From Leptospiraceae bacterium (GTDB taxonomy: Bacteria; Spirochaetota; Leptospiria; Leptospirales; Leptospiraceae), in assembly GCA_017996175.1 (NCBI GenBank), contig JAGOHK010000041.1, positions 1 through 38,103 on the forward strand: a stretch of 38,103 nucleotides of DNA, read 5' to 3'. Positions 4,049-38,103 of the stretch are shown here, piece after piece. The notes beneath the pieces are model-generated. The model saw only the letters and a program-made list of their open reading frames with translations, had not been told where the DNA came from and did no database searches. The position numbers were made by a program, and so were the translations under genes. Position 1 is the stretch's first letter. Every line of letters begins with the position of its first letter.

Positions 4049-5398
4049 ATGGAAGATGATTACAAGGAAAAGGCTTTAGCATATCATAGAGCGCATCCGC
4101 GCGGTAAAACAGGAATTGTCTCAACAAAACCTACAAATAATGCTTACGATTTGGCATTAGCTTATTCTCCTGGTGTTGCCTATCCTTGTCTAGAAATTGA
4201 ACGCGATCCAGAGCTAGCATACGAATATACCAACCGTGGGAATTTACTCGGTATTATCTCCAATGGAACTTCTATTCTTGGTTTGGGTGATATTGGGGCT
4301 ATTGCCGGTAAGCCGGTGATGGAAGGAAAGTCTGTTCTATTTAAAAACTTTGCTGGCATTGATGTATTTGATATTGAACTAAATACAAAAGACCCAGATG
4401 AATTTATTCGCGCTGTGAAACTAATGGAGCCTACTTTTGGTGGAATCAACTTAGAAGATATAAAGGCGCCAGAATGTTTTTATATCGAAGAAAAATTAAT
4501 CGAGATCATGGACATCCCTGTTTTTCATGACGACCAACACGGAACCGCCATCATCACTTGCGCTGCTGTTATCAACTACTTGGTATTATCCAACAAAAAA
4601 CCACAAGATGTAATTCTGGTATTAAACGGAGCAGGGGCAGCGGCAGTGGCTATAGCCAAACTTGTAGTTCATATTGGAATCGATAAAGAGAAAATTTTCC
4701 TTGTTGACTCTAAGGGAGTAATATCAAATAGCCGCACAGACCTTAATTCTATGAAGTTGGAATTTGTTCGAAACACTAAAGCTGTTACTTTAGCTGATAT
4801 TATGAAAGACGCTGATATTTTTATCGGTGTCTCCAAAAAAGACCAAGTTACTAAAGAAATGGTGAAGTCTATGGCGAAAGATCCTTTGATTCTCGCTATG
4901 GCTAATCCTGATCCAGAAATTGGCTATAAAGATGCTGTATCAGTTCGATCTGATTTGATTATGGGAACTGGTAGAAGTGATTTTCCTAATCAAGTAAATA
5001 ACCTACTCGGATTTCCATATATTTTCCGAGGAGCCCTTGACATGCGGGCAAGACGTATTAACCTCGAAATGAAACTAGCGGCTGTTTATGCACTCGCAGA
5101 GCTTGCGAGACAAGAAGTTCCTGATTATGTGTCCGCAAAATACGCCGGCGAAAAATTCCAATTTGGGAAAAACTATATTATACCTAAGCCCTTTGATCCT
5201 AGAGTCTACTATCGCGTATCCACTGCCGTAGCCGAAGCCGCTTATGCAAGCGGTGTTGCCCGAATCCCATTCCCTGGAAAAGAGGCTTACAAAATCCATC
5301 TTGATAAATTCAAACCTATTAAAGAAGAAAATCTTGGGGCTATTAACACTATTCCCACAGAAAAAAATAATTTTGAGATTCGCTCGAAAGTTCATTGA
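4049..5398 (+). CDS. NAD(P)-dependent malic enzyme (malate dehydrogenase, oxaloacetate-decarboxylating)
   Basis: Malic-enzyme signature [42 protein letters not shown] and NAD-binding [11 protein letters not shown]; ATG at 4049 preceded by AAGGA chosen over upstream GTG at 4025. Confidence 0.85.
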
Positions 5399-5411
5399 GT
5401 TTTTTTGAATT

Positions 5412-5684
5412 ATGCCAATTACCGAAGAAGAAACAGAAGTCAGCACTCGAATAGATAATATTTACGAACACAAAGTAATTTTATTCAATGACGATGTAAA
5501 TCCATTTGATCATGTCGAAGATTGTCTCATGCGAATTTGTTTTAAGTCAGAAAAAGAGGCAAGACGAATTGCGCATGAAGCGCATAACAAGGGTAAGGCG
5601 ATTTGCTATGACGGAAGTATTGAATCTTGCGAGACTGTTGCAGAGAAAATGGGTGAAGAAAGACTTACCGTGAGTGTGGTGTGA
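5412..5684 (+). CDS. clpS: ATP-dependent Clp protease adaptor ClpS
   Basis: 90 aa; ClpS core ILFNDDVNPFDHVEDCLMRIC...EAHNKGKAICYDGSIESCETVA. Confidence 0.85.
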   Translation: MPITEEETEVSTRIDNIYEHKVILFNDDVNPFDHVEDCLMRICFKSEKEARRIAHEAHNKGKAICYDGSIESCETVAEKMGEERLTVSVV

Positions 5685-6439
5685 ATCTAAGATGGCGTGA
5701 CCTAACCACTCTTCGTCCACATGAAATTATAATGGACTTACTTCTTTGGACACCATGGTTATTTCTAGCTTGGTTCTCTGTTGTAAATGGTTTATGGATA
5801 TTAGCCGTTATAGGTTGGTTTTTCTTTTTTTTGACTGGTCTTAGATTATCGCATGAAGCATTTCATCGTAACCTTGGACTGCCTGTAGTCGTTTGTGATT
5901 TGATTTTAGTTTTCCTTTCTCCTTTAATGTTTGCGTGTTTACATGCTACTCGTTATACGCATTTACAGCACCATCGGCATTGTCTTAAAAAAGGGGATAT
6001 AGAAGGATTAGTCGCAAAGTATAAATTGGGGGAGGCTATCTACAAGGGTTTTCAATATCCAATCCTTTCGCATAGGTTTGCATGGAACTCAAATCATTCT
6101 CATACAATTTTTTGGATGTCTTCGGAGATAATATGGATTACCTGCTTTTATAGTGTAGGGATTTATTTTTTCCCGTTTCTTTTTTTGGCTCATTTGATTG
6201 CGATGGTCTTTGCTGAATGTATGGTAAGTTTTTTTGCAGTCTGGATGGTTCATCACGATTGCGAGGATCGGCAAAATCCAGCCCGTTCTATTCGTGGACT
6301 TTGGCGTGGACTTTTAACTTACAATATGTTCTATCATTACGAACACCATGGCTGGTCCCGTGTTCCAACAAGAAATTTACCTGAATTGGCAAGACGGTTA
6401 GATGCTCTCGAGAATAGGAATTTTCGAAGGGCTTTTTAA
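5681..6439 (+). CDS. Membrane fatty-acid desaturase-like protein (three His boxes), unusually short
   Basis: 252 aa with hydrophobic segments and His boxes HEAFH, HLQHHRH, HYEHH; GTG at 5681 overlaps clpS stop, alternative ATG at 5732. Confidence 0.55.
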   Translation: MNLRWRDLTTLRPHEIIMDLLLWTPWLFLAWFSVVNGLWILAVIGWFFFFLTGLRLSHEAFHRNLGLPVVVCDLILVFLSPLMFACLHATRYTHLQHHRHCLKKGDIEGLVAKYKLGEAIYKGFQYPILSHRFAWNSNHSHTIFWMSSEIIWITCFYSVGIYFFPFLFLAHLIAMVFAECMVSFFAVWMVHHDCEDRQNPARSIRGLWRGLLTYNMFYHYEHHGWSRVPTRNLPELARRLDALENRNFRRAF

Positions 6440-6508: not shown

Positions 6509-6754
6509 ATGACAAAAGTAATTACTATGAGAATAGATGAAACTATATTAAAACAATTTAACAATTTTGCTAAGTTAGAAAATCGATCTTTATCCAATTT
6601 TATCGAAACAGCAACGAAAAAGTATATTAATGAAATGGAATTGACCAGTGATTTTGAAACAAAAGAAATTTTAGAAGACAAACAACTTTTGAAGAAAATT
6701 GAGAGTGGGCGAAAAGATGCTAAAGCTAGACGAGGTAAGTTTGTCAAAGTTTAG
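6509..6754 (+). CDS. Putative type II antitoxin (small helical/RHH-like DNA-binding protein) paired with RelE/ParE toxin
   Basis: 81 aa, immediately upstream of and overlapping a RelE/ParE-like toxin; N-terminal MRIDETILKQFNNFAKLENRSLSNFIE resembles RHH antitoxins. Confidence 0.5.
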   Translation: MTKVITMRIDETILKQFNNFAKLENRSLSNFIETATKKYINEMELTSDFETKEILEDKQLLKKIESGRKDAKARRGKFVKV

Positions 6755-7019
6755 AATTTTTGAAACAACTCAATTTCAATCCGATCTAGAAAAACTCCCA
6801 AAGAAAATGAAAACCATGATTGAGAATAAACTCAAGGCATATGTATATCCCCAATTGTCCCAAGAACCAAGCTGCGGATTAAATATTAAAAAGTTAAAAA
6901 ATTACACTCCTGCTACATGGAGATATAGAATTGGAAATTATAGAATCTTTTATCAAATTGATGAAACAGAAAGCATCGTGTTTATCCTTTCCGTTGATCT
7001 TCGAAAAGATGCATACTAA
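6717..7019 (+). CDS. RelE/ParE-family type II toxin
   Basis: ~100 aa; C-terminal WRYRIGNYRIFYQIDETESIVFILSVDLRKDAY is the RelE/ParE core; ATG at 6717 (ORF track extends to TTG 6699). Confidence 0.75.
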   Translation: MLKLDEVSLSKFRIFETTQFQSDLEKLPKKMKTMIENKLKAYVYPQLSQEPSCGLNIKKLKNYTPATWRYRIGNYRIFYQIDETESIVFILSVDLRKDAY

Positions 7020-21503: not shown

Positions 21504-22058
21504 TTAGATAATTTCAGCTAGACTAATGAGTTTGTTCGTAAGCGGGATTAAAATTTTTTCTTCAAGTCCAACTGCTTTTTGAAAAGTATATTTTCCGTTA
21601 ATAGGATTTTCGAATACTAAGATTTTTTGATTTTGCAAATCTAAAATCCAGTAGATAGAAATATTGGCTGAGGCATAAATATCTGCTTTGTACAAATCAT
21701 CTTCGAGAGAACTAAAGGTTACTTCCACAACAAAAGCCGCTGTCTCTGGATATTTGTCTCCGAAGTCGTCATAGTTTCCTTCGAGAAGAGAAATATCTGG
21801 CTCTGGTTCTGAATCAGCTATCTTGATTGGACTTTCTTGCAATACGATAAATCTTTCTGGGATGGCAGAGCTTAAAATATCTCGGAGTTTATTTACTACT
21901 TTTCGATGTTTGGGTGAGATTGTTATTTTACGTACAACGATTCCATGAATGAGTTCGGTATTGCGCGGCAAAATTCCAATAGTGCCTAATTTATGATAGG
22001 TATCCAAATCATATTGAAAGATTTTTTTTACCCTAGACTCAGTCAATACAGAACTCAT
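21504..22058 (-). CDS. Uma2-family (DUF820) putative PD-(D/E)xK endonuclease
   Basis: AAFVVEVTFSSLEDDLYKADIYASANISIYWILDL matches the Uma2 core (E..V.S......D...K...Y...G..EYWI.D). Confidence 0.7.
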   Translation of the reverse strand: MSSVLTESRVKKIFQYDLDTYHKLGTIGILPRNTELIHGIVVRKITISPKHRKVVNKLRDILSSAIPERFIVLQESPIKIADSEPEPDISLLEGNYDDFGDKYPETAAFVVEVTFSSLEDDLYKADIYASANISIYWILDLQNQKILVFENPINGKYTFQKAVGLEEKILIPLTNKLISLAEII

Positions 22059-25412: not shown

Positions 25413-26353
25413 TGGACATTGAGTTTCCAGAAAATCTAATTTACTTAGAGAAAAGCCCACGTCACCCCAATTTATATGATGTGAGCCTCCATGGAATCGA
25501 TAAGTTAACAGAGTACGACTCGATAGAAATTCATATAGTACTTTATCCGTACAGTAGAAGAATCAGCTCTGAACAGGTTAGCTTTTATCCGTTCGAAGAA
25601 TATGTAAAAGACGTAGAGTCAAATCATCTTTCTGCGTATTCAAAGATGCTTCCTAAATTTCAAAAGTTTTTTGGTCTAACACTTGGTTCTCTCATTGCTG
25701 GAATATTTTACAAATACAAACCCGATGATTTATTTTCTGTAGAATCTATTGTTGCAGTATTTGCGGCATACTCTATCGGCAAGGAAATGTGGTCGGATAT
25801 AGAAAGATTTTTTATCAATATTTCTAAACGTTCTAGAATGCGTTATACGGAAGACTACTATCGCTATGAGTTAGAAAAATTTACTACGATGACTCACTAT
25901 TCAACACTCGCCAAACAAAAACGTTACGGCAAAACAACATTACTCCCAGAGAAAATTAATTTCTTAGAGTTAAGTAATTCCCAAACTCTTAGAATGTATT
26001 TTGAACTAGCAGAAATCAAAGAAAAAAAAGCCAAATCGGCACATATATTCTCAATCCATATAGACCCAACCCTTCATCCAGATTTTGTAAAATACGGACA
26101 TTTATTCGGAGTTAAACTCAGTTTGAATCAAAAGAAATTTGGCTTCACCAAAAAACTAGAACTATTCCAATCTCTCCATAACCGCGAAAAAGGTTGCCTC
26201 GATGACGAAGAAGTCTGGTCTAAGAATGCTATTTTCTTTCGACGAGTGTTGACAATGGGCAAAATCAAATATTTTCTAGAGCGGGGGCTAATTGCTAGTA
26301 AGTCGCTTATTTCTTATATTGAGCCTAGGTTTGGGAAGAGTCGGAGAGGGTAA
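25412..26353 (+). CDS. Hypothetical protein (313 aa) translationally coupled between PP2C phosphatase and hsdR
   Basis: TAATG overlaps at both ends (25412 and 26353); two hydrophobic segments near residues 85-125; no known motif recognised. Confidence 0.55.
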   Translation: MDIEFPENLIYLEKSPRHPNLYDVSLHGIDKLTEYDSIEIHIVLYPYSRRISSEQVSFYPFEEYVKDVESNHLSAYSKMLPKFQKFFGLTLGSLIAGIFYKYKPDDLFSVESIVAVFAAYSIGKEMWSDIERFFINISKRSRMRYTEDYYRYELEKFTTMTHYSTLAKQKRYGKTTLLPEKINFLELSNSQTLRMYFELAEIKEKKAKSAHIFSIHIDPTLHPDFVKYGHLFGVKLSLNQKKFGFTKKLELFQSLHNREKGCLDDEEVWSKNAIFFRRVLTMGKIKYFLERGLIASKSLISYIEPRFGKSRRG

Positions 26354-28743
26354 TGCTAAGTAAGCGAAACGAATCAGAAACACGCAGAGACTTAATTGAT
26401 CCTGCCCTTTTACAAAATGGCTGGAATGACGCACTCATCAAACGAGAAGAAACTGCTCCGACTGTTGATATCATTGATGGAAAAGCTGTTCGCCGCAAAA
26501 AAGGCAGAACGGACTATACACTTCGTATCCGCTTAAATGAAACATCGCAACCAATCGCTATTGCCCTCATCGAAGCCAAGACAGAATCCGATTCCCCCTC
26601 AAAAGGACTTGAACAAGCAAAATCTTATGCAGATTGTAAACGTTTAAATGTGAAATTTATCTATTCCTCAAATGGACACCAGTTTGTAGAATTCAATCGT
26701 TTCACTAGAGAGACAAGTTCTCCTAAACCCATGTCTGAGTTCCCAAGTCCCGATGATCTCAGAAGAAAATATGAATTTCACATGGGTTTTGGTTTGGCGG
26801 ATACTGTCGCTAAGCCACTCAGTAGCAAATACAAAGGTGGAGAAGACGCAAGACGATACTACCAAGATGCTGCTATCCGTGCTGTGTTAGAAAAAATTGC
26901 CCAATGTAAAACTAAAAAGGAACCGAGTAGAGTATTACTTTCCTTAGCCACTGGCGCTGGAAAAACTTTCATCGCTGTTCACTTGCTTCATAAAATTGCA
27001 ACTGCCGGAGATATGCGAAAAGCTCTTTTTATTTGTGATAGAGACGAACTTAGGTCACAGGGATTAAACGCCTTTAAAAATATATTTGGAAGTGATACCG
27101 CCGAGGTTTACAAAACAGGGGATAATCGAAATAACGCGAAGAATGCAAAGATTCATATTGCAACCTATCAGACTTTAGGAATAGACAAAAAAGAAGAAGA
27201 GAACGACGAAGTATCGGAAAGTTTTTTAAATCAATTCTACTCAGAGAATGAATTTAGTCATATAATCATTGATGAATGCCATCGCTCTGCTTGGGGCAAA
27301 TGGTCTGAAATTTTAAAAAAGAATCCTGATGCAGTCCAAGTAGGGCTAACAGCGACTCCGCGCCAGTTGATCGATGACAACAAAAATGACTCTGAGATAA
27401 GTGCGAATAATTTCAAATACTTCGGCGAACCTGTCTATGAATATGACATCAGCCAAGGAATCGAAGATGGATACCTTGCCGCTTGTGAAATTCTAAAAGG
27501 TAGAGTCAATATTGATGACACTGGTTTAACACTCGCACAGATAATCAAACTTAAACCCAAAGATTATATCACTGGAAGATTATTAAGTGAGAAAGAGCTA
27601 AAAGACATTTACGAAAAGAACGACTACGAAGGGAAAATTCTTTTACCCGATAGAGTCGCAGCGATGTGTAAAGACTTGTTTGACTATCTATGTGAATCGG
27701 GAAAACCCGAACAGAAAACCGTTATATTTTGCACTAGAGACACTCATTGTGATTTGGTAGTCGCCGAGCTAGAAAGAATTTATAAAAAGTATTGTGATGA
27801 AAACAATCGAGAGCCTAAGGAGCATTTTGCGTTCAAATGTACGACTGCCGGTGGAAGTGAAAATCTCCAAACCTTCAAAGGAAATCCCGAAAGATACTTC
27901 ATAGCGGCTACTGTTGATTTGCTTTCTACGGGTGTTGATATTCCTAGACTCCAAAATGTAGTATTCTTTCGGTATTTGAAATCAGCGATTACATTTTACC
28001 AAATGGTCGGTCGTGGAACGAGACTTGATCCTGAATCCAACAAACTCATGTTTCGAGTTTATGATTATACAAATTGCACTCGACTTTTCGGAAAAGAATT
28101 TCTATCTAAACTAACCAAAGAAAAATCAGACAAAAAAACCGGTGGTGGTGGCGGTGATCCAGAGCCTGTCATACTTCCCTACGTGGAAGGATTTGACGAT
28201 ATTCTAGTTCATTATGTAGATCATCAAATGCTCATCTCAGAAGAAGGAAAGGCAAAACCTGTGAGTATCGACATTTACAAACAGCGTGTTGTCGATGTTC
28301 TAGTTCACTCTTCCGAAACTGTAGAATTTTTTCGCAAAACATGGATTGAACCACAAGAAAGAAAATCTCTCATGGAAAGACTTCCCTCTAACGGCAAATC
28401 CGCATTAGTCGTTCAAAAGCTAACCAATATGTCCGACTTTGACCTCTTTGACGTATTAGCCGAACTTGGCTACCACACCGAGCCGCAAACCAGAAAAGGT
28501 AGAGTCTCTAACTTCCTAGCGCATAACAAAGATTGGCTTCTCGCTTTTCCCAAACGCACTTCTTCTGTTCTACAAGAAATTCTAAACCAATTCATAAAAG
28601 GCGGAACCGAAATTCTAGAAAGCGGCTACTTATTCCAAGTCCCCGAAATCAACCGCGCCGGTGGTATTATTGGTCTAAAAGAATCCGGCTTGGCACCGAG
28701 AGAACTTTTACAGGAAACGAAATGGAAGCTATTCACTGTCTGA
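26353..28743 (+). CDS. hsdR: Type I restriction enzyme R subunit (HsdR), short EcoEI-like (type IB) architecture
   Basis: N-terminal PD-(D/E)xK (DYTLRI...ALIEAK), SF2 helicase motifs GAGKTFIAV, DECH (IIIDECHRS), LTATP, QMVGRGTR; ~800 aa with EcoEI-type C-terminal region. Confidence 0.85.
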   Translation: MLSKRNESETRRDLIDPALLQNGWNDALIKREETAPTVDIIDGKAVRRKKGRTDYTLRIRLNETSQPIAIALIEAKTESDSPSKGLEQAKSYADCKRLNVKFIYSSNGHQFVEFNRFTRETSSPKPMSEFPSPDDLRRKYEFHMGFGLADTVAKPLSSKYKGGEDARRYYQDAAIRAVLEKIAQCKTKKEPSRVLLSLATGAGKTFIAVHLLHKIATAGDMRKALFICDRDELRSQGLNAFKNIFGSDTAEVYKTGDNRNNAKNAKIHIATYQTLGIDKKEEENDEVSESFLNQFYSENEFSHIIIDECHRSAWGKWSEILKKNPDAVQVGLTATPRQLIDDNKNDSEISANNFKYFGEPVYEYDISQGIEDGYLAACEILKGRVNIDDTGLTLAQIIKLKPKDYITGRLLSEKELKDIYEKNDYEGKILLPDRVAAMCKDLFDYLCESGKPEQKTVIFCTRDTHCDLVVAELERIYKKYCDENNREPKEHFAFKCTTAGGSENLQTFKGNPERYFIAATVDLLSTGVDIPRLQNVVFFRYLKSAITFYQMVGRGTRLDPESNKLMFRVYDYTNCTRLFGKEFLSKLTKEKSDKKTGGGGGDPEPVILPYVEGFDDILVHYVDHQMLISEEGKAKPVSIDIYKQRVVDVLVHSSETVEFFRKTWIEPQERKSLMERLPSNGKSALVVQKLTNMSDFDLFDVLAELGYHTEPQTRKGRVSNFLAHNKDWLLAFPKRTSSVLQEILNQFIKGGTEILESGYLFQVPEINRAGGIIGLKESGLAPRELLQETKWKLFTV

Positions 28744-28857
28744 ATCGCGGATTATACGGATTAAGGGATTACACGGATTGGACTTAATTGAAAAAAATAA
28801 ATCTGCGGAATCCATAAAATCTGTGCTCAAATCTGCGATCAAGGATTATGCTTAATA
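28737..28857 (+). repeat. Direct repeat copy A: remnant of hsdS 5-prime end (encodes SESRIIRIKGLHGLDLIEKNKSAESIKSVLKSAIKDYA*)
   Basis: ~86% identical over the first 42 nt to the start of hsdS at 29236 (tgtctgaatcgcggat...), homologous at protein level; coordinates approximate. Confidence 0.7.
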
Positions 28858-29243
28858 TGAATACTGATTTAAAATATGAGGACATTACTAAAAAGATAAT
28901 TGGGGCTTCGTTTGAGGTTCATAAATTTTTAGGGAACGGATTTCAGGAAGTTATCTATCAAAGAGCCTTAGCTTATGAAATGAAAATGGCCGGTTTAGAA
29001 TTTGACAGAGAAATTGAACAAAATATTTATTATAAAGAATTAGAAAAACCAATCGGAAAAAGAAGAGCTGATTTTGTAGTAGAAGGAAAAGTCTTAGTGG
29101 AACTTAAAGCAATCATTCAACTTGAAGATGTGCATTTAGCACAAGCTCTCAACTATCTAAAAGCCTATAAATTAGAAGTTGGATTACTCATAAACTTCGG
29201 TAGCAAAAGTTTAACATTTAAGAGGTTGGTGAAAAGTGTCTGA
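28848..29243 (+). CDS. GxxExxY-family protein (small PD-(D/E)xK-like protein often embedded in R-M loci)
   Basis: 131 aa; motif GNGFQEVIYQ (GxxExxY), family-typical length and DFVVEGKVLVELK core. Confidence 0.75.
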   Translation: MLNMNTDLKYEDITKKIIGASFEVHKFLGNGFQEVIYQRALAYEMKMAGLEFDREIEQNIYYKELEKPIGKRRADFVVEGKVLVELKAIIQLEDVHLAQALNYLKAYKLEVGLLINFGSKSLTFKRLVKSV

Positions 29244-30456
29244 ATCGCGGATGACACAGATTAAAGGATTACGCGGACAAGAAAAAGAAAATCAATCCGT
29301 GAAATCTGCGTCATCCTTTAAATCCGCGATTCTGACAAGTGATGCAGTGAAGCTGGGCGATATGTGTGAGCTTATTAGTGGTCAGCATATTGAGGCAGAC
29401 AATTATAACACTGATAGTATTGGAACGCCGTATTTAACGGGTCCGTCTGACTTTGGTTTGTTACATCCTATCATAACACGATGGACTGAATATCCAAAAG
29501 TCTTAGCAAAGAAAAATGATATACTCATTACAGTTAAAGGTTCAGGAACTGGTAAGCTAAACATCTTAGACAATGAATTAACGTGTATTAGCCGTCAATT
29601 AATGGCAATAAGAGTAAAGAGCAATGTGAATAATCTTTACCTCTATTATTATTTGGATAATATATATGCTCACTTCCAGAATGAATCCGAAGGGTCAGCA
29701 ATTCCAGGTATCGGTCGAGAGGATATTCTAAAAATTCCAATCCCTCTCCCGCCAATCACCATCCAAAAAGAAATCGCGGATTACCTACAATTTCGCCTAA
29801 CGTGTGTGGAAGAGGCAAAACAAGCAGTGAAAGCAGAACTCGAAGCCGTTAAATCATTGAAGCAAGCGTATTTGAGAGAAGTGTTTTCTTCCGAGCAAAG
29901 CAAAGATTGGGGCAAAGTAAAATTAGGCGATATGTGTGAAAATTTGGATAGTAAACGTGTTCCAATTACTTCAAATGTTCGCAATAAGGGAAACATTCCT
30001 TATTATGGGGCTTCAGGCGTAGTTGATTATGTAGAAGATTACATTTTTGATGAAGACTTGTTACTTGTAAGTGAGGACGGTGCAAATTTAATTTCAAGGA
30101 CTCAACCGATAGCTTTTTCTATATCCGGTAAAACTTGGATTAATAATCATGCACATGTTTTAAAGTTTGAAAGTAGGATTACCCAGCAATTTGTTGAGTT
30201 TTATATTAATTATGCTGACATTAATATTTTCGTTTCAGGTTCCGCTCAACCTAAGTTGAATCAAGAAAACTTAAATAAAATCCCAATCCCACTCCCGCCA
30301 CTCGCCGTCCAAAAAGAAATCGCCGACTATTTACAAACGAAGTTTACAACTGTGGATACTCTTGTGCAGGCGCTCACGGAGAAGAAGAAGGCTATAGATG
30401 ATTTGCCGCAGGCGTTTTTGAGGGAAGTGTTTGGTAACACGGATGGAGCGGGTTAG
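29236..30456 (+). CDS. hsdS: Type I restriction-modification specificity subunit HsdS (two TRDs, two conserved repeats)
   Basis: Internal repeats KIPIPLPPITIQKEIADYLQ and KIPIPLPPLAVQKEIADYLQ after each target-recognition domain; LGD start motif of TRD1 at residue 40 after a 38-aa N-terminal extension. Confidence 0.85.
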   Translation: MSESRMTQIKGLRGQEKENQSVKSASSFKSAILTSDAVKLGDMCELISGQHIEADNYNTDSIGTPYLTGPSDFGLLHPIITRWTEYPKVLAKKNDILITVKGSGTGKLNILDNELTCISRQLMAIRVKSNVNNLYLYYYLDNIYAHFQNESEGSAIPGIGREDILKIPIPLPPITIQKEIADYLQFRLTCVEEAKQAVKAELEAVKSLKQAYLREVFSSEQSKDWGKVKLGDMCENLDSKRVPITSNVRNKGNIPYYGASGVVDYVEDYIFDEDLLLVSEDGANLISRTQPIAFSISGKTWINNHAHVLKFESRITQQFVEFYINYADINIFVSGSAQPKLNQENLNKIPIPLPPLAVQKEIADYLQTKFTTVDTLVQALTEKKKAIDDLPQAFLREVFGNTDGAG

Positions 30457-30530
30457 GGGACTGCACGGATTGGGCTTAATTGAAAAAAGTAAATCTGTGG
30501 AATCTATACAATCAGTGGTCAAAAAGAGAT
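30440..30530 (+). repeat. Direct repeat copy C: third copy of hsdS 5-prime segment immediately after hsdS stop
   Basis: ggggactgcacggattgggcttaattgaaaaaagtaaatctgtggaatc... is ~86% identical to copy A at 28766-28830; coordinates approximate. Confidence 0.65.
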
Positions 30531-30581
30531 TGAATTTAATTATAGGGATTGATAGAATAGTTTGTAAGCGAGGAAATAGAA

Positions 30582-30791
30582 ATGAGTGAACTCGAATTAA
30601 AATTTAATAGTTTAAATTTCAATGAGCAAAGGATAATTTTAGATATGGTGAATCTTTTAATTCTTAGAAAAAATCCTAGCAAGCTCTCGGAATATAAGAA
30701 AAAAATACTCACAATTTCTACTTGGTCTGAGGATGACCTAAAAGTATTTGAAGAAAATAAAATTGTTAATTGGAATGTGCCTTCATGGTAA
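30582..30791 (+). CDS. Putative antitoxin of VapBC-like pair
   Basis: 69 aa ORF whose stop overlaps (ATGGTAA) the start of a PIN-domain gene. Confidence 0.5.
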   Translation: MSELELKFNSLNFNEQRIILDMVNLLILRKNPSKLSEYKKKILTISTWSEDDLKVFEENKIVNWNVPSW

Positions 30792-31162
30792 TTGATACTA
30801 ATATTTTCATTGAATATCTTCGTGCTACGAAAAAAAATGATACCACATTACAACGATTACCCGATGAGTCTGATTGGTATGTATCAAGTATAACAATTTA
30901 TGAATTATTCATGGGTGCTAATACAGTAAAGAAAAAAGAAGAAATTAAAGTTTTAACCAGTGATTTAATTTTGCTTCCTTTCAATTATGACACAGCAATG
31001 AAGTCCGCAGAAATTTATAACGATTTAAAGTCAAAAAATCAGATTATTGAGTTTAGAGACATTTTTATTGGAGCAACTGCAATTTTAAACCATTTACCAG
31101 TATTAACTCTAAACCGTAAACATTTCGAAAGAATAGATGGAATCAAAATATATGAAAACTAA
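30785..31162 (+). CDS. PIN-domain toxin (VapC-like)
   Basis: MVIDTNIFIEYL... with the conserved acidic residues of PIN domains (D4, E43 region YELFMG, D95-like DIFIGATA); ATG 30785. Confidence 0.75.
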   Translation: MVIDTNIFIEYLRATKKNDTTLQRLPDESDWYVSSITIYELFMGANTVKKKEEIKVLTSDLILLPFNYDTAMKSAEIYNDLKSKNQIIEFRDIFIGATAILNHLPVLTLNRKHFERIDGIKIYEN

Positions 31163-31227
31163 AAATTTTGATACAATCACAATGAAACGAAAAGCACAGG
31201 AAAAAATAATATAGTAAGTGAGGAAAT

Positions 31228-31494
31228 ATGATAACCGCTCAAATGGAACCAATGAATATAGAAGCAAAAAAAATTGAATTAATTTCTAAAATTACTCGAT
31301 TGATTGATTACTCAATTCTGCTTGAGTTAGAAAAGATTTTGTATTTATCCGAGCAGGAAACCGAGGAGTGGGATACTCTAACAAACTTGGAAAAGGAAAA
31401 AATTGAAAAAGGATTAGATAGTATAAAACAAGGAAAAGTCATTTCCCATGCTACAGCTAAACAAAAAATAGATCAATTTATAAAAGAGTTATGA
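31228..31494 (+). CDS. Putative antitoxin (addiction-module component) of RelE/ParE pair
   Basis: 88 aa helical protein directly upstream (1-nt gap) of a RelE/ParE-like toxin. Confidence 0.5.
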   Translation: MITAQMEPMNIEAKKIELISKITRLIDYSILLELEKILYLSEQETEEWDTLTNLEKEKIEKGLDSIKQGKVISHATAKQKIDQFIKEL

Positions 31495-31495
31495 A

Positions 31496-31813
31496 ATGTC
31501 TTATGAAGTAAAATGGTCAGACGATGCTCTTTTAGATTTTCAAGAAATTTTACGGTATCTACATGACAATTGGGGAACTAATTCTGTTATAAAATTTCAA
31601 ACAAAAGTTGAAAAAGAAATTGATACAATTTCTGAAATGCCTGGAATATTTCCTTTTATAAATAAATTAAAACGGATTCGCCGATGTGTTCTTGTAAAAC
31701 AAGTCTCTCTGTATTATATGGAACTAGAAATTGAAAGAGAAATATATATTATCCGCTTTTTGGATAATCGACAGGATCCAAAGATGATTCAGGAAGAATT
31801 AAATAAATATTAA
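31496..31813 (+). CDS. RelE/ParE-family toxin
   Basis: 105 aa; MSYEVKWSDDALLDFQEI...RRCVLVKQVSLYYMELEIEREIYIIRFLDNRQDP follows the RelE/ParE pattern (W...A..D......R..YR....I.I......R). Confidence 0.7.
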   Translation: MSYEVKWSDDALLDFQEILRYLHDNWGTNSVIKFQTKVEKEIDTISEMPGIFPFINKLKRIRRCVLVKQVSLYYMELEIEREIYIIRFLDNRQDPKMIQEELNKY

Positions 31814-32542
31814 TGACTAAACCAACTAAAAAATTTACAACCCAAGCAAGCCTTGACTCACATATTTGGGCGGCGTGTGATATTTTGCGTCGTTCCAATT
31901 GTGCGGGTGCTTTGCAGTATGTGCCGGAACTAACATGGCTTTTATTTTTACGCATCCTTGACATTAAGGAAGAAAGAGAAGCAGAAGTAGCCGCTACTCT
32001 AAGTAAACCATACCAATTTTCCTTGGAAGAACCTTATCGCTGGAAAGACTGGGCGGCTCCCTTTGATAAAAAAGAATTAGAGAAAAATCCTAAAGCACAA
32101 GGTAACAAGCGTTATACGCTCACAGAAAAAAGTAGTTCTGGAACGTATTTTCAATTTGTAAACCAAGACTTACTTCCCTATCTTAAAAAGCTTAGAGATA
32201 AACCAAATGCAACTTCTCGCCAAAAAGTAATTAGCGAAATGGTTGCGAGTGTAGATAGAACAAAAGTGGACTCCGAAAAAAACTGCAAAGCTAGAAGCGG
32301 ATACTTTACGTAAGTCGGCAAAGGTGATTCAAGATACAAATCCAATTTTGGACAAAAAACAAGAAGAGGAAGTCAAAGACCTTCTAAAAAAAGCTTCCGC
32401 GATAGAAGATTCAGTCTATGATTTAAAGGCGGTCAATCCAAATCGAAAATCAGAAGAAGACAATCGAACTCCGAAAGAGCTAATTGACTTTATACAAAAG
32501 AAAGACACGGAAATAAGCAAACTACTTGCTAGCCTTTCCTAA
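31813..32542 (+). pseudogene. hsdM: hsdM remnant: N-terminal domain (166 codons) fused out of frame to a C-terminal coiled-coil tail; catalytic MTase domain deleted
   Basis: 31813-32313 encodes an HsdM_N-like domain (TQASLDSHIWAACDILRR...YLKKLRDKPNATSRQKVISEMVASVDRTKV) then stops; the downstream frame (KTAKLEADTLRK...PKELIDFIQKKDTEISKLLASLS) resembles an HsdM C-terminal helix; no FxGxG or NPPF/Y motifs anywhere. Confidence 0.65.
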
Positions 32543-32552
32543 CACTCCAAAA

Positions 32553-32645: not shown

Positions 32646-32685
32646 ATCGGTGTCCATCGGTGTCCATCGGTGTCCATCGGTGGTA
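32646..32685 (+). repeat. 10-bp tandem repeat (atcggtgtcc) x3.7 in the ilvD 5-prime region
   Basis: atcggtgtcc atcggtgtcc atcggtgtcc atcggtgg, 28-67 nt upstream of ilvD ATG. Confidence 0.85.
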
Positions 32686-37828: not shown

Positions 37829-38103
37829 TCAGACTTTTTCATAAAAACAAATTCCTACTCTTTGGATATGATCGAGTAGATCAGAATTATTTATTTGATG
37901 GTAAATCGAAATATCAAATTTATAGGGTAAAAATAAATCATCCAATTTTAAAAGAATTTGATTTAGAATAGTTAGGTTCAATACTTTTCCTTTAAGAGTA
38001 ATATCAATATCAGAGCCATTTTTAAAATTTCCTTTTGCTCGTGAACCATAGATAATCGCCTTTTCTATTTCTGGAACTGTAGCGAATACGCTTTGTATGT
38101 CGG
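37829..38103 (-). CDS. Nucleotidyltransferase (MNT-type, Pol-beta superfamily) domain protein, 3-prime part; gene continues beyond window end
   Basis: My minus-strand translation gives ...EIEKAIIYGSRAKGNFKNGSDIDITLKGKVLNLTILNQILLKLDDLFLPYKFDISIYHQ...YEKV*, with the GSxxxG...DxD motif; stop at 37829-37831. Confidence 0.6.
   Translation of the reverse strand, partial: DIQSVFATVPEIEKAIIYGSRAKGNFKNGSDIDITLKGKVLNLTILNQILLKLDDLFLPYKFDISIYHQINNSDLLDHIQRVGICFYEKV

Follow-up and report, generated by a model that had tools for sequence, protein, structure and literature searches.

A stretch of 38,103 nucleotides from a Leptospiraceae bacterium (GenBank assembly GCA_017996175.1, contig JAGOHK010000041.1), referred to here as the window, carries three direct repeats in a type I restriction-modification (R-M) locus, where they flank a small nuclease gene of the GxxExxY family (PF13366) and the adjoining specificity gene, hsdS. 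The repeats are very probably copies of a palindromic arm module that accompanies GxxExxY genes, and there is a fair chance that the nuclease gene and its own palindromic repeat together constitute a distinct class of element. A highly conserved subfamily of the protein travels with this specific module in 41/46 loci, the motif of the arms differs from one protein subfamily to another, and gene and module are placed together at the borders between cistrons.

Self-comparison of the window confirmed that a segment of about 100 nt occurs three times in direct orientation, as an earlier reading of this DNA (the original prediction) had proposed: copy A at 28737-28845, copy B at 29237-29340 and copy C at 30429-30525, all on the forward strand. 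They occupy successive gene junctions, A between hsdR and the GxxExxY gene, B between that gene and hsdS, and C between hsdS and vapB. The nuclease gene is therefore framed by direct copies and has the look of an insertion-like passenger between hsdR and hsdS, on both of which points the prediction was right. The copies are clearly similar, A and B being 88% identical over 41 nt (28737-28777 against 29237-29277) and A and C 82% identical across 84 nt, loop included (28748-28831 against 30440-30523); the 3' parts of A, B and C share 83-87% identity across 23 nt. The micro-repeat of 9-bp period noted in the segment is real as well. Its unit is CGGATTANA. If at most 3 mismatches are allowed, the window has 16 matches to the 14-mer GGATTACACGGATT where 3.3 are expected; none of 100 shuffles attained 16, and the matches in excess of chance are confined to copies A, B and C.

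Each copy is a long imperfect palindrome, in which a 5' arm of four or five units is followed by a short loop and then by the inverse arm; none encloses a gene. In A, the 5' arm (28737-28780) is intact, the loop spans about 28781-28798, and the 3' arm (28799-28845) is degenerate. In B, which overlaps the 5' end of the hsdS open reading frame (ORF), both arms are intact (5' arm 29237-29277, loop 29278-29292, 3' arm 29293-29338), and inverted repeats I3 and I4 were detected in it. C is decayed, with a loop of the A type (CTTAATTGAAAAAAGTAAA) and a terminus mutated to TGTTTGGTAACACGGATGG. The RNA folds predicted for A (-33.2 kcal/mol, z -4.6) and B (-40.2 kcal/mol, z -4.8) are strong, and that of C is weak (-18.6 kcal/mol, z -0.85). 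At its start, TGTCTGA, the repeat contains a TGA that is the stop codon of both hsdR and the GxxExxY gene. In C this TGA has changed to TGG and the hsdS ORF extends about 7 codons into the arm, its last 6 codons (NTDGAG) being the 5' arm of that copy.

What ties these repeats to the nuclease gene is their occurrence beside its relatives in other genomes. We fetched 80 genome loci as 12-kb neighbourhoods chosen by presence of the gene (L numbers below designate these and other loci). The arms in these loci have a regular structure: a 17-nt terminus, TGTCTGAATCRCGGATT, is followed by three or four GGATT motifs at 9-nt spacing, and the opposite arm is the inverse. Thus the 5' arm reads TGTCTGAATCACGGATT and continues with GGATT at intervals of 9 nt, the 3' arm has the reverse-complement sequence, and the 17-nt terminus is identical in the logos of both sides (GTCTGAA and TTCAGAC, from 111 and 110 arms respectively). 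In 41 of the 46 loci with a protein at least 74% identical, drawn from at least 8 phyla, the terminus lies within 250 nt of the gene. Its density is 3.77 per kb within that distance, 0.10 elsewhere and 0.017 in shuffles, a 37-fold enrichment beside the gene relative to elsewhere. Arm-bearing loci come from Bacteroidota, Cyanobacteria, Chlorobiota, Spirochaetota, Poribacteria and other groups.

A profile built from 216 arms, all from other genomes, recognises the copies in the window. The A 5' arm (28737-28779) is matched at E 1.6e-8, the B 3' arm at E 2.5e-7 (as a minus-strand match) and the B 5' arm at E 7.7e-7, while the decayed parts score poorly (A 3' arm, E 1.2; copy C, E 1.7). Nothing beyond A, B and C scores in the 38 kb in this search, and two related Leptospiraceae loci without the gene (L091 and L106) have none.

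The sub-repeat of the arms shifts with the protein subfamily. At 74% identity or more, GGATT prevails (mean 4.0 against 1.8 TGATT); below 74%, TGATT dominates (5.1 against 1.8 GGATT), and L082 uses GAATT. A GTCTGAAC-type terminus is kept across all subfamilies. Such tracking of the protein by the arm motif is what one would predict for a protein that reads the arms. Literature searched on family names and arm sequences contained no description of arms of GxxExxY genes, although database curators may have made informal notes of them; a table line in PMC3424549 enters PDDEXK_3 as 'unknown, multiple transfers'.

The GxxExxY (PDDEXK_3) gene itself occupies 28848-29243 on the forward strand as a maximal ORF of 131 aa, with its stop TGA in the terminus of copy B; its start is likely the ATG at 28857, judging from the MNTDLKY beginning that it shares with homologues. 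The assignment is firm, with profile scores of 131.7 bits for TIGR04256 (cut-off 35) and 123.3 bits for PF13366 (cut-off 22), and the residues G31-F-Q-E34-V-I-Y37, D75, E85 and K87, which are near-invariant in 66 diverse members, are all present. In an AlphaFold2 model computed on a diverse alignment (pLDDT, the predicted local distance difference test score, 93.6), the fold is a minimal Cas4/RecB-like PD-(D/E)XK nuclease, restriction-endonuclease-like alpha/beta, with D75-E85-x-K87 intact. Searched by sequence, the PDB yielded no relative, the PADLOC defence models gave no match except a weak one to Cas4 (E 0.003), and PHROGs gave only weak matches.

The family is large - 14,725 clusters at 50% identity match the window protein - and this branch of it is conserved to a high degree. 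Relatives at 75-92% identity are found in Bacteroidota, Cyanobacteria, Chlorobiota, Spirochaetota, Latescibacterota, Poribacteria, Marinimicrobia, Fibrobacterota and others, in contrast to the adjacent HsdR, whose best relative is only 64% identical. At the amino-acid level the window protein is 78-90% identical to 12 homologues outside its own phylum, whereas 55-85% of four-fold sites differ, which is to say that they are saturated. High protein identity despite saturated four-fold sites indicates that the gene is old and under very strong purifying selection, and since the non-coding 17-nt terminus is equally conserved, it must be functional too. Spurious terminal extensions are seen in the annotations of other GxxExxY homologues, for example MSESQIIQIKK... 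and ...LTQNPRNQKIRENQ.

The simplest form of the element elsewhere is a 5' arm, the gene and a 3' arm, 469-478 nt in all, with the ATG right after one arm and the stop right before the other. In another form, complete gene-less palindromes of about 98 nt (solos, for short) stand on one or both sides of the gene, as they do in the window. Tandem arrays of arms or palindromes occur in L014, L055, L058 and L081: six 5' arms with a 72-nt period at L014:8-410, four palindromes with a 127-nt period at L058:6405-6912, and tandemly amplified arms or palindromes also at L081:5667-5865. An intermediate is available in L031 (127-365), a 239-nt element in which the gene is truncated and its middle lost; given this element, the gene-less solos are most simply explained as deletion derivatives of gene-bearing forms. 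A search for cargo other than GxxExxY between arms found almost none, save in L057, where an arm pair (4478-5855) encloses a gene for a 412-aa AAA_14/DUF4143 ATPase, between duplicated kinase tails. Among 2.9 million IMG/VR viral contigs, the terminus was found in only 12 (L093-L104), none with a GxxExxY gene, which gives no sign of carriage by phages; these 12 contigs carry a single terminus or one solo palindrome (L094:2983-3065).

Of 152 nearest neighbours, 129 are co-directional with the GxxExxY gene. Host genes are varied (trp genes, purA, aconitase and others), with histidine kinases (9 upstream), MacB/FtsX permeases and parts of R-M systems recurring; the last comprise Methylase_S (8), N6_Mtase (4), HSDR_N (3), EcoEI_R_C (2) and MmeI (2), and L105 is another case adjacent to hsdM. 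Where a long upstream ORF runs into the 5' terminus, it stops on the TGA of the terminus in 17 of 28 cases, one third being expected, and in many loci the ATG of the next gene comes directly after the 3' terminus.

At some borders the tail of the host gene is duplicated, the long duplications being limited to particular host gene families. Where the host is a histidine-kinase gene, its 3'-terminal 84-105 nt (SYDIVKAHGGELKVETKEGEG...IQLPVV, then the stop) are found flush on both sides of the element or solo. These kinase-tail loci are from Bacteroidota (L015, L016, L021, L024, L031, L034 and L057; for example L015:5860-6516), and kinase hosts also show tandem arrays of tail plus palindrome with a 189-nt period, in which the downstream copy decays. 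Shorter 3'-tail duplications accompany the subfamily with TGATT arms, involving the FtsX/MacB C-terminus in L066 and L083 and 18 nt of a type IIG methyltransferase gene in L074 and L090, which means that tail duplication is not limited to kinases. No duplicated tail of hsdR, of the GxxExxY gene or of hsdS was found in the window.

Variation among strains shows that rearrangement takes place at the level of the repeats, a point in favour of the original prediction: arm number differs between strains, with metagenome variants L006 and L010 carrying an additional partial copy between hsdR and the GxxExxY gene. The loops make it possible to relate the copies to each other. A and C have one loop type (CTTAATTGAAAAAARTAAA), and B shares another (CAAGAAAAAGAAAATC) with the extra copy in L006/L010, to which it is 89% identical over 91 nt. 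As independent deletions would not give identical loops, the solos appear to have been copied locally after gene loss, and such copying accounts for the look of direct repeats framing genes. The window thus holds one intact gene and three solos (A, B and C), an arrangement that we infer to have arisen from more than two copies of the element through loss of the gene and subsequent local copying. All ten metagenome contigs with this exact protein keep the gene, a sample that was retrieved by protein and so could not include the product of an excision between A and B. Two metagenome DNA scans, with the hsdR 3' end and with the A/C loop, returned no matches, and hence neither an empty-site allele nor a second site.

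Taken together, these observations most likely reflect a selfish, operon-riding nuclease element. Such an element would be a promoter-less passenger, co-directional with the genes of its host operon, and its terminus would supply a TGA stop to the gene upstream. The arms would be arrays of recognition sites for the small RecB/Cas4-like nuclease, whose action on them as duplex, hairpin or cruciform DNA could lead to copying by host recombination and not to classical transposition. Slippage and recombination between arms would then generate tandem, solo and mosaic arrangements, and loss of the gene by internal deletion would leave a palindrome of about 100 nt, a solo resembling a miniature inverted-repeat transposable element (MITE). 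Spread of the element would be rare. We lean towards this account as a whole - the identity of the arm module, the forms of the element, the history of the window and the mechanism - though not by much, and the mechanism, considered by itself, is put forward only tentatively.

A more general proposal is possible, if somewhat unlikely: that these are members of an undescribed selfish class, in which a Cas4/RecB-like PD-(D/E)XK nuclease of about 125 aa recognises its own arm arrays as hairpin or cruciform DNA and spreads without a transposase via host recombination or repair. Insertion would fall precisely on the border between two cistrons and contribute a stop codon, in some cases the 3' end of the target gene (histidine kinases, FtsX permeases, type IIG methyltransferases) would be duplicated, and solos like those of MITEs would be left. 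If this were true, the protein and the 17-nt DNA terminus would have co-evolved, both being conserved across bacterial phyla.

Several observations weigh against a selfish element of this kind. No short direct repeat indicative of target-site duplication is present at 68 element borders, and there is no transposase or recombinase in the element or in the 38-kb window. Three proteins (P0117, P0106 and P0078), each sampled with identical sequence in many metagenomes, have one genomic context apiece across 24 contigs, so the elements are stable within species and give no sign of recent hopping. The gene often lies outside the palindromes, as it does in the window, an arrangement that would presumably need extra steps of duplication and deletion, and the activity of the nuclease on the arms is something we purely infer. 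A purely selfish gene is rarely conserved to such an extreme at the protein level, which could point to a role that benefits the host. The counts of solos, finally, refer to 12-kb neighbourhoods picked by presence of the gene and are not genome-wide.

The main rival to the operon-riding nuclease element places the function of the palindromes in RNA. In the transcript of the operon they would act as RNase III processing sites or insulating stems, comparable to those at the borders of ORF-containing intervening sequences in 23S rRNA, uncoupling the mRNA of the passenger and stabilising the upstream message. The stems predicted on the sense strand are indeed very stable (z about -4.7 for A and B), A folds 10 kcal/mol better on that strand, and pairing across the gene is possible between the 5' arm of A and the 3' arm of B (I1); co-orientation with host operons and exact placement between stop and start codons would also be expected of an element that works in RNA. 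What is conserved, however, is the motif array and not the pairing. Compensatory pairing specific to individual elements is not seen, inner-arm complementarity being 0.653 within elements and 0.643 between unrelated ones (p 0.30), and G.U pairs show no excess over A.C on the sense strand (96 against 188). The promoter/terminator scan detected no T-run terminators after the stems, and Rfam produced no match, either at gathering thresholds over the whole window or at E up to 1 over 28650-30650. With the G.U-excess and complementarity tests negative, we dropped a conserved RNA stem as the primary reading, and an RNA-level element is on this evidence unlikely.

Integron-like cassettes offer a second alternative, and an improbable one. 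The palindromes would in that case be attC-like sites, folded from single strands, and insertion by site-specific recombination between hairpins would leave the same palindrome on both sides of a gene. The array does have the order palindrome-gene-palindrome-gene-palindrome, and its genes are co-directional and lack promoters. The nuclease gene stands between B and the additional L006 copy (89%), and that gene plus hsdS between A and C (82%), which is what integration at a palindrome would produce; toxin-antitoxin (TA) cassettes lie nearby. Against this, the 38 kb contain no intI and no tyrosine or serine recombinase, the junctions after vapC and parE have no palindrome, and the termini, GTCTGAA...TTCAGAC, misfit the attC R''/R' consensus, RYYYAAC...GTTRRRY. 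Moreover, attC logic does not give rise to a gene lying within one palindrome, and this is the form most often met with elsewhere.

Improbable to a similar degree is a pair resembling type III TA systems, in which the 9-nt repeat arrays would be transcribed and then bound or processed by the GxxExxY protein as an RNase, the RNA neutralising it; the gene would accordingly serve addiction or defence and would not be mobile. The repeat of ToxI is 36 nt, and units of 9 nt are far below the known length of antitoxin RNA repeats. Nor do the PADLOC defence models recognise the protein, the weak Cas4 match apart, and the arms stand in inverse orientation to either side of the gene and are retained even in solos that have no gene.

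The original prediction had taken the triplicated segments for the 5' end of hsdS and had seen in them a cassette-exchange hotspot, at which recombination between A and B would excise the GxxExxY gene and copy C would be the trace of a lost hsdS cassette; this we regard as very improbable. It is true that direct repeats frame both the gene (88% over 41 nt) and hsdS, that repeat number is polymorphic and that a related Leptospiraceae R-M operon has different passengers (XisH/XisI and PIN) between hsdR and hsdS. But the segment is not conserved hsdS coding sequence. The maximal hsdS ORF (29236-30456, forward strand; PF01420) encodes 406 aa with two target recognition domains (TRDs), and the conserved protein begins at VKLGDMCE (nt 29347), residue 38 of that ORF, which is also where BLASTP alignments to Leptospiraceae HsdS begin; the closest HsdS, from a Leptospiraceae metagenome-assembled genome (MAG), starts 7 residues before its VRLGDVCE. 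The starts of TRD1 and TRD2 repeat one another, TRD2 opening with the same VKLGD-type motif. It follows that the first 30-36 or so codons are hairpin B read as protein, gene callers having put the start codon inside the 5' arm, and that copy B is not the true start of hsdS. The 39-codon hsdS remnant attributed to copy A exists as an open frame of 38 codons, but the frame is a translation of the arm and no remnant of hsdS. In dozens of other loci, GxxExxY genes with no hsdS nearby are flanked by these same arms. As for exchange of cassettes, hsdS is single, the 38-kb window has no spare TRD or alternative TRD cassette, and no recombinase is found among its 30 ORFs of at least 90 aa, leaving both the hotspot and the lost cassette behind copy C unsupported. 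The related operon with other occupants between hsdR and hsdS is without any arms.

Ordinary host palindromes of the repetitive extragenic palindromic (REP) kind, standing beside the GxxExxY gene by coincidence, are the least probable explanation, for although size, palindromic form and position just after stop codons resemble REP sequences and bacterial interspersed mosaic elements, the other 36 kb of the window and two related Leptospiraceae loci have no further copies, and the arms are common to distant phyla and track the gene.

The locus that the GxxExxY element occupies in the window is itself an accessory island, in the order hsdR, A, GxxExxY, B, hsdS, C, vapBC, parDE, hsdM. Its first gene, hsdR (26353-28743, forward strand as are all genes of the island), encodes an EcoAI/EcoEI-type restriction subunit of 796 aa (NCBIfam NF046051 at 6e-132), whose natural C-terminus, ...KLFTV, is followed by the TGA in the terminus of the first arm; the nearest relative, the 64% identical HsdR of a Leptospiraceae MAG, ends in ...KLFMV at equal length. 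Downstream of copy C lie two passengers in the operon, a VapB-like/VapC (PIN) TA pair (30582-31162; PF01850 at 1.5e-16, NF047863 VapC) and a ParD-like/ParE pair (31228-31813; PF05016 at 1.9e-7), with the ParE stop overlapping the hsdM start. The last gene, hsdM (31813-32542), is a pseudogene that retains an N-terminal domain (31813-32313; PF12161 only) and a C-terminal tail (32324-32542), a clean internal deletion having removed the N6_Mtase catalytic domain of about 300 aa; what remains corresponds to residues 8-133 and 435-480 of a 484-aa HsdM. The hsdR and hsdS reading frames are intact, and the type I system as such, its methyltransferase domain deleted, is dead.

A related Leptospiraceae MAG, L106, is syntenic with the window up to 26365 and again from 32547, and has 2.9 kb of unrelated small genes in between (L106:6815-9743), including a PIN TA pair and no arms. 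This synteny break, with different content between conserved sides, marks the hsdR-to-hsdM block (26366-32546) as a strain-specific island, flanked by a conserved 313-aa gene and by ilvD (IlvD is MBP7282380.1). In a more distant Leptospiraceae type I R-M operon (L091:8001-18391; HsdR 64% identical), passengers between hsdR, hsdS and hsdM comprise XisH/XisI, a PIN TA pair, DUF2281, DUF4240 and Tox-URI2, again with neither a GxxExxY gene nor arms. Neither an integrase nor a transposase nor a second hsdS is present in the window. In terms of R-M biology there is nothing out of the ordinary: this type I locus is a decaying accessory island colonised by passengers and not a specificity-switching device.

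Just outside the island, in the ilvD leader (32647-32682), a 10-nt tandem repeat, CGGTGTCCAT, is present in 3.5 copies; it is superficially like the 3' arm (ATCCGTGTCCATCCGTG) but has another period, and the L106 sequence differs there. Further small genes of selfish type in the window are those for a putative Uma2 PD-(D/E)XK endonuclease (21507-22058, minus strand), a second ParE toxin (6699-7016, plus strand) and a Pol-beta nucleotidyltransferase (37832-38101, minus strand). At 11102-13633 (minus strand), an 844-aa ORF combines major-vault-protein shoulder and repeat domains with SPFH/Band 7, which is unusual in a spirochaete.

PF13366/TIGR04256 is a very large family, and the arms give it a concrete, testable candidate substrate, together with a hypothesis for what its members may be, namely nuclease-driven selfish elements or addiction modules. 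There is also a consequence for annotation, in that arms are routinely translated as false N- or C-terminal extensions (some 30 codons of 'hsdS' in the present case), yield small hypothetical ORFs of the RITRI/NPCNP kind, or pass for gene-derived repeats.

Among known systems, the phase-variable hsdS shufflon resembles the locus in that repeats lie near hsdS in a type I R-M locus. A shufflon, however, needs at least two hsdS copies, inverted repeats inside the coding borders of TRDs and usually a recombinase, none of which the window has; its repeats lie outside conserved HsdS sequence, and its hsdM is dead. Integron cassettes share with the locus promoter-less, co-directional genes with imperfect palindromes of some 60-140 nt between them, and TA genes as neighbours, but the window has no integrase, the arms have no attC consensus and the gene is often inside one palindrome. 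The intervening sequences in the 23S rRNA of Leptospira and Coxiella, whose ORF encodes an S23p four-helix bundle, are similar in that a small, scattered ORF sits inside inverted repeats in a transcribed unit that is left intact. In Coxiella, the intervening sequence is described in PMC4990558 as a selfish element of 428 nt with an ORF, located in helix 45. The hosts of GxxExxY, by contrast, are protein-coding operons - the site in the window lies between protein-coding genes and has no match to rRNA or any other Rfam family - and the protein belongs to another family, with no covariation in the stems.

Together with these intervening sequences and the REP systems discussed below, MITEs, including the Correia elements of Neisseria, are the closest analogues, each of the three departing from the GxxExxY element in at least one defining trait. 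Like MITEs, the GxxExxY element has terminal inverted repeats, with an identical 17-nt terminus, exists as short gene-less derivatives of a longer, gene-bearing form (with the internally deleted intermediate in L031), and inserts in or beside operons, where it would form hairpins in mRNA. It differs from them in having neither target-site duplication nor a recognisable transposase and in its strong co-orientation with host genes. As for mobility, arm copy number varies between strains and the pairs A/C and B/extra copy point to local copying, but three identical proteins each occur in one context and not in several.

The REP sequences of Proteobacteria with their REP-associated tyrosine transposases (RAYTs), the REPtrons, differ from the GxxExxY element in protein, repeat and copy number. 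The GxxExxY protein is a PD-(D/E)XK nuclease of about 125 aa and not an HUH Y1 transposase of the IS200/IS605-like type; each arm is an array, 45 nt long, of a 9-nt unit and has a 17-nt terminus conserved across phyla; and the GxxExxY family is usually multi-copy. REP repeats are dispersed in hundreds of copies per genome; in the 12-kb neighbourhoods and the 38-kb window, arm copies away from the gene occur at 0.10 per kb. The plan is nevertheless alike. In both, a short palindromic repeat stands in inverted copies to either side of a small gene of nuclease type, as seen in the complete palindromes on both sides of the window gene and in the order 5' arm, gene, 3' arm of many loci. REP/RAYT systems, too, make no target-site duplications, keep their gene stably within a species, and have clustered solo palindromes that stand just after stop codons in operons.

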